IMG/VR virus record: IMGVR_UViG_2693429622_000002
Strand: one strand, 5' to 3'
Source: a virus
Taxonomy: Duplodnaviria > Heunggongvirae > Uroviricota > Caudoviricetes
DNA: 29,630 nt
Shown: positions 210 to 29,630 of the stretch, piece after piece
Layout of the letters: the number at the start of each line of letters is the position of its first letter
How positions within the stretch are numbered: position 1 is the first letter of the stretch
The notes under the pieces: generated by a model
Databases searched by the model: none
Told to the model about the DNA's origin: nothing
What the model saw: the letters and a program-made list of their open reading frames with translations, nothing else
Made by a program: the position numbers and the translations under genes

Positions 210-620
210 TTAGTGCGGAAATATTTGTGTAGTGTTCTGTATGTTCTCAGTAAAGAGTAATGAATTATCAAAGGTATAGTAATACCTTTTGTTTTCGTGG
301 ATATTTGTAATCCATCTGAAAACCCCTGCTGTAGCAAGATTTTTCCTGTATTCGTAAAATGATAACTCTCCTGATTTGAATCCTTTTAAGGTGGCTTCTA
401 TAAGGCATTTATTTTTTGAAAATCTTACATTTACAACCTTACCCTGTCCTTTTATTAAAACCGTATTATCGTTTTCAAGAACAAGATGAATATTCTCTGT
501 GGCTAAATAGTAAATGTAATGTGAGACATTGTGACGTTTTAGTTCAGAATAAAACCAGTGATAGTTTAAATTATTTCGCACTTTATCGAATATTTGTTTA
601 AAAATGGCAACCTGAGCCAT
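210..620 (-). CDS. Hypothetical protein, AT-rich moron-like gene (136 aa from ATG at 620 with GAAGG 7 nt upstream; 141 aa if started at 635)
   Basis: 141-codon open frame in visibly low-GC DNA, where stops should be frequent; sits between the lysis-side region and cos. No motif recognised. Confidence 0.55.
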
Positions 621-677
621 TGTAGTACCTTCCATGTGATATGAGGGGGCGTAGTCTGCACGATTATCTAAATTGCT

Positions 678-911
678 TCAATCTGGTCTAACCTGTTTTC
701 TGAGCAATTCAGTAATGTCACTCTTTTCTTTGTTTGCTTCAGGCGAAACTCTTTTTTCTGAGCACAGTCTCCGGCGGCAGGCTTCAATGACCCAGGCTGA
801 GAAATTCCCGGACCCTTTTTGAACAAGAGCGATGTTAATTTGTTCAATCATTTGGTTAGGAAAGCGGATGTTGCGGGTTGTTGTTCTGCGGGTTCTGTTC
901 TTCGTTGACAT
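678..911 (-). CDS. Small ribbon-helix-helix (Arc/MetJ/CopG-like) DNA-binding protein, 77 aa
   Basis: Translation MSTKNRTRRTTTRNIRFPNQMIEQINIALVQKGSGNFSAWVIEACRRRL: basic N-terminus, beta-strand RNIRFP, then two short helices separated by a Gly-containing turn, typical RHH layout. Family call from pattern only. The start-proximal sequence appears to lie in lambda-conserved right-end DNA, so it may be a backbone gene. Confidence 0.55.
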   Translation of the reverse strand: MSTKNRTRRTTTRNIRFPNQMIEQINIALVQKGSGNFSAWVIEACRRRLCSEKRVSPEANKEKSDITELLRKQVRPD

Positions 912-1049: not shown

Positions 1050-1290
1050 GACATGTAGATGATAATTATTATCATTTTGCGGGTCCTTTCCGGCGATCCG
1101 ACAGGTTACGGGGCGGAAGGCGCGCGGGTTTTCGCTATTTATGACAATTTTCCGGTTTAAGGCGTTTCCGTTCTTCTTCGCCGTAACCTAATGTTTTTAT
1201 TTAAAACACCCCCTGAAAAGAAAGGAAACGACAGGTGCTGAAAACGGGCTTTTTGGCCTCTGTCGTTTCCTTTCTCTGTTTTTGTCCGTG
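1050..1290 (+). promoter_or_regulatory. cos: cos packaging region: cosQ-proximal sequence, cosN nicking site, cosB with Nu1-binding R elements
   Basis: Near-identity to my recollection of the lambda right-end/left-end junction (..TCCGGCGATCCGACAGGTTACG | GGGCGG.. CGCGGGTTTTCGCTATTTATGA..). Repeated CGTTTCC/GGAAACG motifs at about 1162-1179, 1218-1236 and 1260-1275 match lambda R3/R2/R1 placement. Confidence 0.85.
1111..1122 (+). promoter_or_regulatory. cosN: cosN 12-nt cohesive-end core, divergent from lambda (GGGCGGAAGGCG versus lambda GGGCGGCGACCT)
   Basis: Position fixed by conserved flanks (ACAGGTTACG upstream, CGCGGGTTTTCGC downstream); five substitutions clustered at positions 7-10 and 12. 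Confidence 0.7.
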
Positions 1291-1299
1291 GAATGAACA

Positions 1300-1819
1300 A
1301 TGGAAGTCAACAAAAAGCAGCTGGCTGACATTTTCGGTGCGAGTATCCGTACCATTCAGAACTGGCAGGAACAGGGAATGCCCGTTCTGCGAGGCGGTGG
1401 CAAGGGTAATGAGGTGCTTTATGACTCTGCCGCCGTTATAAGATGGTATGCCGAAAGGGATGCTGAAATTGAGAACGAAAAGCTGCGCCGGGAAGTTGAA
1501 GAACTGCGGCAGGCCAGCGAGACAGATCTCCAGCCAGGGACTATTGAGTACGAACGCCATCGACTTACGCGTGCGCAGGCCGACGCACAGGAGCTGAAAA
1601 ATGCCAGAGACTCCGCTGAAGTGGTGGAAACCGCATTCTGTACTTTCGTGCTGTCGCGGATCGCAGGTGAAATTGCCAGTATTCTCGACGGGATCCCCCT
1701 GTCGGTGCAGCGGCGTTTTCCGGAACTGGAAAACCGACATGTTGATTTCCTGAAACGGGATATCATCAAAGCCATGAACAAAGCAGCCGCGCTGGATGAA
1801 CTGATACCGGGGTTGCTGA

Positions 1820-1845
<26 letters not shown>
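1300..1845 (+). CDS. nu1: Terminase small subunit Nu1 (181 aa)
   Basis: Protein begins MEVNKKQLADIFGASIRTIQNWQEQGMPVLRGGGKGNEVLYDSAAV, matching lambda Nu1 from memory; immediately downstream of cosB. Confidence 0.95.
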
Positions 1846-28265: not shown

Positions 28266-28846
28266 TGGCATTCAGAATGAGTGAACAAGCACGGACCATA
28301 AAAATTTATAACCTGCTGGCCGGAACTAATGAATTTATTGGTGAAGGTGACGCATATATTCCGCCTCATACAGGTCTGCCTGCAAACAGTACCGATATTG
28401 CACCGCCAGATATTCCGGCTGGTTTCGTGGCTGTTTTCAACAGTGATGAGTCATCGTGGCATCTCGTTGAAGATCATCGGGGTAAAACGGTTTATGACGT
28501 GGCTTCCGGCGACGCGTTATTTATTTCTGAACTCGGCTCATTACCGGAAAATGTCACCTGGTTATCCCCGGAAGGGGAGTTTCAGAAGTGGAACGGCACA
28601 GCCTGGGTGAAGGATACGGAAGCAGAAAAACTGTTCCGGATCCGGGAGGCGGAAGAAACAAAAAACAGCCTGATGCAGGTAGCCAGTGAGCATATAGCGC
28701 CGCTTCAGGATGCTGTGGATCTGGAGATCGCAACGGAGAAAGAAACCTTGTTGCTGGAAGCTTGGAAAAAGTATCGGGTGTTGCTGAACCGTGTTGATAC
28801 ATCAACTGCACCGGATATTGAATGGCCAGTAGCACCTATAGGGTAA
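28265..28846 (+). CDS. tfa: Tail fibre assembly chaperone Tfa (193 aa)
   Basis: [54 protein letters not shown] matches lambda Tfa from memory; ATG overlaps the stf stop (TAATG). Confidence 0.9.
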
Positions 28847-28930
28847 ATTCGTAATGATTACCTAAATACGTTATTCTTTTGTTAAAAAAGTGATTTTGCT
28901 ATAGGTAGGGAGTATGTTCTTGGATTAAGA

Positions 28931-28962
28931 ATAAAAAATCGCCATGAAAGAGCTTCATGGCG
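28931..28962 (-). terminator. Intrinsic terminator oriented for leftward transcription (CGCCATGAA-AGAGC-TTCATGGCG, then T-run on the minus strand)
   Basis: Perfect 9-bp inverted repeat at 28940-28962; on the minus strand it is followed by ATTTTTTAT (plus 28931-28939). Implies a leftward transcript originating to the right. Confidence 0.5.
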
Positions 28963-29630
28963 AGTACATAAACGTACAAAATGTGATGAAAGTAGAGTGG
29001 CGTAAGCCACTATATTAAGATATGACAATAGCGAAGAAAAGTAAATAACATTTTATGGACGTTTAATTGTTAATTATAAAAACTAGAGTGCCCGATATTG
29101 TTTATCTTGCTTTAAAATAATGTACTCAAACCAAATTTTTGAGCTAAAAGCTCAAATAATATAAATGCAATAATAATGTTTAATAAGACAATTAGCTTGC
29201 TTTGTATTTTCATTTCGGAATACTGTTAAGTAACTTTGATGACCCTAACAATAGATCGGAATTTTCTTAGAGTCAATGGTCACTGTTTTTGCTTGCAAAG
29301 CAAATGTTTTGGTGGTTATAAGTCGTCTTAATATAGTCACGCATGCAACTTGTTCCATGCGGAGATTAAAGATTGGAATATAACGCGAAGATGGAATTAA
29401 ATTACATTTGCAATAATTAATTTATTATTACTCAATAATTACCGATATTATTATTGTAAATTAATCATTAGAATGCAAAAAGAAATGTAACGGCAAAATA
29501 AGAGGACGATAGCTGAGAAAAAAGCGTGCTTTCCCAATCTGGGGCAAATCACGTCTGAATGACACCTGAAAACAGGTGGTAGCCTCAAGAAGGCTGGTGA
29601 TGCTGCCAACTTACTGATTTAGTGTATGAT

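Follow-up and report, generated by a model that had tools for sequence, protein, structure and literature searches.

The window analysed here is the whole 29,630-nucleotide stretch of DNA from a virus of the class Caudoviricetes (IMG/VR record IMGVR_UViG_2693429622_000002), and the question raised by its left end is whether two small genes lying side by side in the accessory region between Rz and the cohesive-end site (cos) form one functional unit or are separate accessory genes. They had originally been read as a regulator with a ribbon-helix-helix (RHH) fold followed by an effector, in the manner of a type II toxin-antitoxin (TA) or exclusion cassette. The anatomy behind that reading is correct. 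Two open reading frames (ORFs) on the minus strand, 678–911 (77 aa, with an ATG start) and 210–635 (141 aa; 210–620 from an internal ATG), stand to the left of cos, which is about 200 bp to the right of the two-gene interval; the start of the 77-aa gene is 200 bp from the cohesive end. The cos site itself (1081–1122, plus strand) comprises cosQ, GGGTCCT at 1081–1087, and a 12-nt cohesive-end segment at 1111–1122 reading GGGCGGAAGGCG. It was placed by alignment to the right end of lambda, DLP12 and Qin, with the annotation of cosQ taken from phage 434. Further to the right, the late packaging genes begin with a 181-aa ORF for the small terminase subunit, nu1 (1300–1845, plus strand), whose annotation is Nu1 in PhiR49_1 and nohD in E. 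coli. An Rfam scan of positions 1–1500 gave no more than miRNA noise below threshold, at the hairpin close to nu1.

The longer product is not the unassignable protein that it had been taken for. Whether 136 or 141 residues long, it is a full-length member of the DUF1398 family, covering positions 1–119 of the 119 in the PF07166 profile with 147 bits (cutoff 22), and it also matches phrog_413 with an E-value of 1e-89. E. coli YdfO, the structure of which has been solved by NMR (PDB 2HH8), is matched with an E-value of 1.4e-69 and an identity of 76% over the structurally aligned residues. The protein has the YdfO-like fold of 2HH8, a duplicated alpha-alpha-beta3 module, and apart from 2HH8 no informative structural neighbours of it were found. 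It is basic (pI 9.3–9.4) and soluble. Since it has no signal peptide and no membrane or hydrophobic segment, the database labels of 'envelope protein' and 'head protein' are unsupported. The family that can be reached from this sequence appears to be narrow, as a phmmer search against 1.84 billion representatives gave only 196 matches, many of them fragments. Distant DUF1398 genes (26–38% identity) are found alone amid unrelated chromosomal genes, with no conserved partner gene in the neighbourhoods inspected, and E. coli K-12 has a solitary DUF1398 paralogue, ycgX (PMC3509220). The DUF1398 gene of lambda, lambdap78, is dispensable (PMC10695390), and ydfO is strongly induced by ionic liquid (PMC4077768). 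The latter report also states that over-expression of YdfO protects against oxidative stress; however, the source cited there is about the CPS-53 gene yfdO and says nothing of ydfO, and because of this mix-up of ydfO and yfdO in the literature the claim is not used here.

The DUF1398 gene (210–635, minus strand) is more likely to start at ATG620 than at ATG635, because a Shine-Dalgarno sequence, GGAAGG, is located 7 nt upstream of the former and none precedes the latter, and because the 136 residues counted from ATG620 equal the annotated length of YbcV and YdfO in K-12. The gap between the genes, originally estimated at roughly 55 bp, is 57 bp with this start and 42 bp with ATG635. With a GC content of 31.7% against 54.2% for the whole window (z = -3.8), the gene has a composition equalled in only 1.4% of windows of the same size. 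The low GC that had been ascribed to the pair therefore holds for this gene, but its neighbour, at 44.4%, is only mildly low. Comparison with the homologues in Qin, DLP12 and lambda gives dN/dS values of 0.21–0.35, indicative of purifying selection. These values, together with scores far above the Pfam gathering thresholds for both proteins, imply that both are true genes and not chance reading frames.

The 77-aa product of the upstream gene (678–911, minus strand) is a DUF3950 (YlcI/YnfO) protein, with 72.8 bits for PF13132 (cutoff 25), 35.2 for the NCBIfam model NF041551, YlcI_YnfO_N (cutoff 30), an E-value of 6e-33 for phrog_949 and 96% identity to annotated E. coli proteins of the YlcI/YnfO family. 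The protein is soluble and, with a pI of 10.9, very basic; it lacks a hydrophobic segment and ends in a C-terminal tail of the Qin type. Its gene is antisense to the late genes, divergent from nu1 and next to cos, a position shared with lambda, DLP12, Qin, 434 and 2851. A scan of genome contigs for further relatives yielded mostly lambda control-DNA contamination in unrelated taxa and no new diversity.

Several observations point to an Arc-like RHH fold. In an hhalign comparison, residues 12–33 of the DUF3950 protein are in register with residues 9–30 of Arc, with NIRFP placed opposite NLRWP and followed by helix A and the glycine turn; the register is correct, at an E-value of 0.042 and a probability of 1.2%. 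When the same register is extended by eye, a serine five residues past the glycine falls at the start of Arc helix B. A PHROG scan of 18 family members gave weak HicB-like matches in 13 (best E 0.003) and Arc-like matches in 6 (best E 0.073). The single-sequence AF2 model, with a pLDDT of 54.7, has helices at 19–31 and 37–50, a spacing like that of RHH proteins, and no N-terminal strand. On the negative side, a Pfam scan of 18 members at E-values up to 10 matched no RHH family, the DUF3950 profile found nothing among PDB sequences and Foldseek found no structural match to the model (pLDDT as above) in the PDB. As the direct tests are all negative or below significance, the protein is probably, although not provenly, an Arc-like RHH DNA-binding protein. 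The RHH call of the original prediction is thus plausible from the Arc register and the PHROG matches, but it is not statistically established. In addition to the predicted fold, the protein resembles Arc and Mnt of P22 in being small, basic and encoded inside a lambdoid late region with transcription against it, and its N-x-R-(W/F)-P strand motif, helix A, glycine turn and the serine at the start of helix B are in register with Arc residues 9–30. Unlike Arc and Mnt, the DUF3950 protein has no significant sequence or profile score and no evident antirepressor target, and its dimerization and DNA binding are only predicted.

Comparison with characterized prophages shows that the pair is already known and already annotated: it is the ynfO-ydfO pair of Qin, and it corresponds to lambdap78 plus the ylcI-like gene in lambda and to ybcV and ylcI in DLP12. 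In a four-way alignment, positions 150–1320 of the window match K-12 Qin along the whole length, through ydfO, ynfO, the cos remnant and nohA. The two genes are adjacent here, on the same strand and in the same frame, and as in Qin (b4533-b1549) there is no ybcW/lambdap79 between them. The window differs from Qin in that its DUF1398 gene is a diverged allele (dS 0.67) and in that the pair belongs to an apparently complete lambdoid structural region, whereas Qin is a decayed prophage. Lambda and DLP12 have both genes, in the same orientation and likewise between Rz/bor and cos, as well as the cos-proximal DNA and the same block of promoter and PdhR box (see below). The DUF1398 proteins share 76% amino acid identity with the one encoded here, and residues 1–55 of the DUF3950 proteins (YlcI of DLP12, an unnamed YlcI-like ORF in lambda) are 94.5% identical. 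They differ by an extra block of 560 bp between the genes, which encodes ybcW/lambdap79 on the opposite (plus) strand and swaps the C-terminal tail of the small protein, giving YlcI another, shorter C-terminus. No homologue of lambdap79 was found anywhere in the window.

The expectation that the start of the RHH-like gene lies in DNA conserved in lambda is borne out, since positions 747–1110 are 93–100% identical to lambda, DLP12 and Qin, and positions 912–1110 are almost invariant in all four. Also in agreement with the original prediction, the RHH-like gene is more of a backbone gene than the ORF downstream of it: in the phage collection, DUF3950 is present in 152 records and DUF1398 in 43. 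The downstream ORF is, however, not cargo peculiar to this phage, since lambda itself carries it as lambdap78. It had further been allowed that the interval might simply align to right-end ORFs of lambda with known functions; the whole interval does align to right-end ORFs of the lambda group, but these are ORFs without a known function. The closest phages, PhiR49_1, Kati, Chlobot and ev099, are 98–99% identical. Among complete E. coli genomes, 3951 of 5426 (about 73%) carry similar DNA, and the PGAP labels there are 'DUF1398 domain-containing protein' and 'YlcI/YnfO family protein'. The Qin-type junction is present in 2172 of these genomes (about 40%) and ybcW in 1934.

The DNA around the gene boundary offers some insight into how the DUF1398 gene may be controlled. 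A sigma-70 promoter-like site on the minus strand (663–690) has a -35 element, TAGACC (690–685), a 16-nt spacer and a -10 element, GATAAT (668–663). In the consensus scan it matches at 9 of 12 positions, and it presumably acts as the promoter of the gene. An inverted repeat resembling a PdhR box, ATCTGGTctaACCTGTT (679–695), overlaps this -35 element as well as the RHH-like gene's stop codon, and it is identical to the K-12 site except for one spacer base. In K-12, the PdhR targets identified by SELEX include this box at ybcV/ybcW and at ynfO/ydfO, and deletion of pdhR results in a 10-fold drop of ybcV mRNA (PMC7660256). The promoter-like site and the PdhR box are located in a short block common to the Qin-type and the lambda/DLP12-type arrangements, just inside the point of divergence. 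Overlap with a -35 element is an unusual place for an activator to bind. A second inverted repeat, CTAAATTGCT/AGCAATTCAG, brackets the promoter-like site, one of its arms lying at 703–712. Just past the stop codon of the DUF1398 gene, a hairpin on the minus strand (172–201, GTCCGGTT...AACCGGAC) has no T-run and is a candidate terminator. It folds at -14.4 kcal/mol (z -1.7) in the window; in Qin the stem is kept via a paired change (z -6.0), and DLP12 folds differently.

For the RHH-like gene, no sigma-70-like promoter exceeded the scan threshold on the minus strand of 912–1110. An inverted repeat, ATCAATTAATACG-N7-CGTCATAATTGAT (981–1013), with 13-nt arms that are 85% complementary, is situated 70–100 bp ahead of the gene, within a segment that lambda, DLP12 and Qin share without any difference, and may represent its operator or promoter region. 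A promoter-like site on the plus strand, GTGACA-16-TATCAT (10 of 12 matches, 1048–1075), overlaps a perfect palindrome just before cosQ. In K-12, ybcW and ylcI are transcribed convergently as a pair (PMC12288877).

Taken together, the probable explanation, and the one held with good confidence, is that the interval contains two known lambdoid accessory genes that are transcribed independently from the prophage, one for a small DNA-binding protein linked to the junction and the other a DUF1398 moron. The present analysis contributes to this explanation the family identities, the architecture, the spread of the pair, the purifying selection and the separability of the genes, while prophage transcription and the binding and effect of PdhR come from the K-12 literature. 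The DUF3950 protein would most likely be an Arc/Mnt-like RHH dimer that binds DNA, and its most probable target would be its own upstream 200 bp up to cos, including the inverted repeat with the 13-nt arms, which suggests autoregulation. Its gene is a fixture of the lambdoid junction between lysis and packaging genes and runs against the late operon. The DUF1398 gene, in turn, behaves as a moron: it is AT-rich, lies antisense to late transcription and is carried by some lambdoid phages but absent from others. It fits the classical moron pattern in its atypical GC, its orientation, its patchy presence (less than a third of the number of records of its neighbour) and its promoter-like site with the PdhR-box-like repeat. 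A promoter of its own and an orientation antisense to lytic genes are typical of accessory loci (PMC7067206). With a sigma-70-like promoter that is overlapped by a site for the pyruvate sensor PdhR, the gene would be expressed from the prophage under host control, and its protein may act without DUF3950, alone on a host target and not as a toxin. The gene can be compared with bor and lom of lambda, classical morons expressed in the lysogen. These, too, are non-essential and of atypical composition, occupy accessory slots within the late region and are transcribed either antisense to the late genes or independently of them. Bor and Lom, however, are envelope proteins with known phenotypes, in contrast to the YdfO-like proteins, which have neither signal peptide nor membrane segment.

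The cassette reading, which takes the RHH-like protein for an autoregulating antitoxin and the product of the DUF1398 gene for a toxin or abortive-infection effector, draws on the gene order, with the RHH-like gene first and a small basic protein 57 bp behind it on the same strand, on the HicB-like antitoxin matches in the majority of the DUF3950 members and on the location of the pair in a prophage accessory region. The pairing, however, is not conserved. At least 109 phage records have DUF3950 without DUF1398, among them phage 434, with the order Rz-bor-DUF3950-cosQ, and the Stx phage 2851, where DUF3950 is divergent from an HNH-terS-terL packaging module. In lambda and DLP12 the two genes are about 660 bp apart with a gene on the opposite strand between them, and distant DUF1398 genes are solitary. 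The obligate association in one operon expected of a type II TA system is thus not observed. In Pfam and PADLOC, no match of either protein to a toxin family reached the threshold; the HEPN_AbiA_CTD match is below cutoff (15.8 bits against 27), and the defence models of PADLOC-DB 2.0 gave only Csx23 for DUF1398 (E 0.025, 12.6 bits) and none for the RHH-like protein. A ybcV over-expression clone had a glycogen phenotype and did not die (PMC2853380), and YdfO could be made in amounts sufficient for the NMR structure. Since the genes are separable, DUF3950 often occurs alone, as does distant DUF1398, ydfO has its own promoter-like site and PdhR box, and no toxin or defence match was found, a coupled cassette, whether for TA, exclusion or another defence, is not supported and is very improbable. 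A 233-aa 'fusion' of DUF3950 and DUF1398 (P0013), considered as a Rosetta-stone link, turned out to be a gene-calling artefact, the DNA having TGA, read as Trp by the gene caller of the source, where the protein has W, and the loci not yielding this protein under table 11.

A unit without toxicity, in which the RHH-like protein is a dedicated repressor or activator of the DUF1398 gene, is also quite unlikely. In its favour, the 2172 genomes counted above with the Qin-type junction have the two genes side by side on one strand, and the AATTG core of the CTAAATTGCT/AGCAATTCAG repeat around the DUF1398 promoter-like site resembles the arms upstream of the RHH-like gene. However, the arm at 703–712 belongs to DNA specific to the Qin type and is missing from lambda and DLP12 despite the same promoter block, short AT-rich repeats are often chance matches, and in most phages that carry the RHH-like gene there would be nothing for it to regulate, as they lack a DUF1398 gene. 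Read-through from the promoter of the RHH-like gene may nevertheless co-transcribe the DUF1398 gene where the two are arranged as in Qin. Another explanation assigns the RHH-like protein to the packaging/late-gene junction itself, where it would bind near cos or repress read-in to the terminase genes, and leaves the DUF1398 gene as an unrelated passenger. DUF3950 is kept between the lysis and terminase genes, in antisense, both in phages with lambda-type cos and in the HNH-terS-terL phage; the 200 bp that separate the gene from cos are almost invariant among lambda, DLP12, Qin and the window; and the plus-strand promoter-like site with its palindrome at 1048–1075 directly precedes cosQ. DUF3950 is also found beside packaging modules in capsid-forming PICIs (PMC13612085). 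A dedicated role at the junction is nevertheless considered unlikely. Minimal cos fragments function without the DUF3950 gene. The conservation close to cos is explained by the function of cos itself combined with frequent recombination at cos (PMC3945230). A bolder extension of the preferred explanation of two independent accessory genes is possible, if doubtful: the DUF1398 protein could be a prophage effector controlled by pyruvate through PdhR that protects the lysogen or reprogrammes it, for instance by superinfection exclusion or a metabolic switch, and DUF3950 could be a new class of Arc-like repressors that guards the boundary between lysis and packaging genes in lambdoid phages and PICIs.

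As a discovery the pair carries little weight. Both genes are already catalogued in lambda, Qin, DLP12 and most E. coli genomes, which makes the finding an ordinary one; the families are in Pfam and NCBIfam, and the pair is present in lambda, in K-12 and in about three quarters of the complete E. coli genomes. It is rather a reminder that two of the most widespread genes of lambdoid prophages have no known function, one of them despite a structure from 2006. The analysis also corrects the misleading envelope and head protein labels and the confusion of ydfO with yfdO.

The slot between the two genes is polymorphic for ybcW/lambdap79. According to a recent report, lambdap79 triggers, or activates, the NADase defence system Vulcan, and escapers of lambda lose lambdap79 through recombination with Qin (bioRxiv 10.64898/2026.09.04.749371). 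Because ybcW/lambdap79 is absent, phages with the arrangement of the window are predicted to be insensitive to the Vulcan trigger. The window has the architecture that those escapers are expected to acquire, and it would represent a natural escape allele.

The 12-nt cohesive-end segment at window 1111–1122 reads GGGCGGAAGGCG, whereas its lambda counterpart is GGGCGGCGACCT; the two differ at five of the six final bases, and the flanks and cosQ (1081–1087) are conserved around the variant segment. The identical variant is found in phage PhiR46_1, in contrast to PhiR49_1, a close relative of the window, and the E. coli K-12 cryptic prophages DLP12 and Qin, all of which keep the lambda sequence. 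GGGCGGAAGGCG is a natural alternative cosN overhang inside an otherwise lambda-type cos. Directly 5' of cosQ, a perfect 8+1+8 palindrome, ATGATAATTATTATCAT, which is less perfect in its lambda version, overlaps a plus-strand promoter-like site (GTGACA-16-TATCAT, 1048–1075, 10 of 12 matches). Farther to the left, the plus-strand sequence TTGTctgaagTTGT at 946–959 fits the CII-site consensus ttgyN6ttgy, and a match to this consensus is annotated at the equivalent spot in the phage 434 record; the CII-type sequence of the window is probably a mere pattern match.

At the left edge, the alignments of the window with PhiR49_1, Kati and lambda begin only at 41–42, leaving bases 1–41 unaligned, and a module boundary lies shortly past the 3' end of the DUF1398 gene. 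Ahead of this boundary, the nearest relatives carry a KilA-N-domain gene and also a small ORF. The right edge, after the tail-fibre-assembly gene, holds a second strongly AT-rich stretch (28610–29630, minimum GC 27.5%) with no complete ORF of at least 60 aa, possibly another accessory slot that is truncated by the window end.

The DUF3950 and DUF1398 ORFs share one reading frame and are separated by one TGA and 14 open codons (window 636–680). The cluster of 233-aa DUF3950-DUF1398 "fusion" proteins (P0013, 761 member sequences) was rejected as spurious, being a product of the TGA=Trp code used by public gene callers. The scan of genome contigs for the lambda YlcI-like (DUF3950) gene returned matches (loci L019–L053) mostly from unrelated taxa, including Streptomyces, Cohnella, Pedobacter, Pseudomonas and Shewanella. 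The contigs that bear them are about 48.4 kb or about 3.5 kb long and look like residual lambda control or spike-in DNA in the assemblies, as do numerous ENA contigs, likewise about 3.5 kb in length, that carry a frameshifted lambdap78 (the lambda DUF1398 gene) or ylcI.

Over-expression of YdfO, a DUF1398 protein, has been said to increase resistance to oxidative stress (PMC4077768). This claim appears to be a mix-up of gene names, because the source cited for it (PMC3105296) actually deals with yfdO of the CPS-53 prophage.
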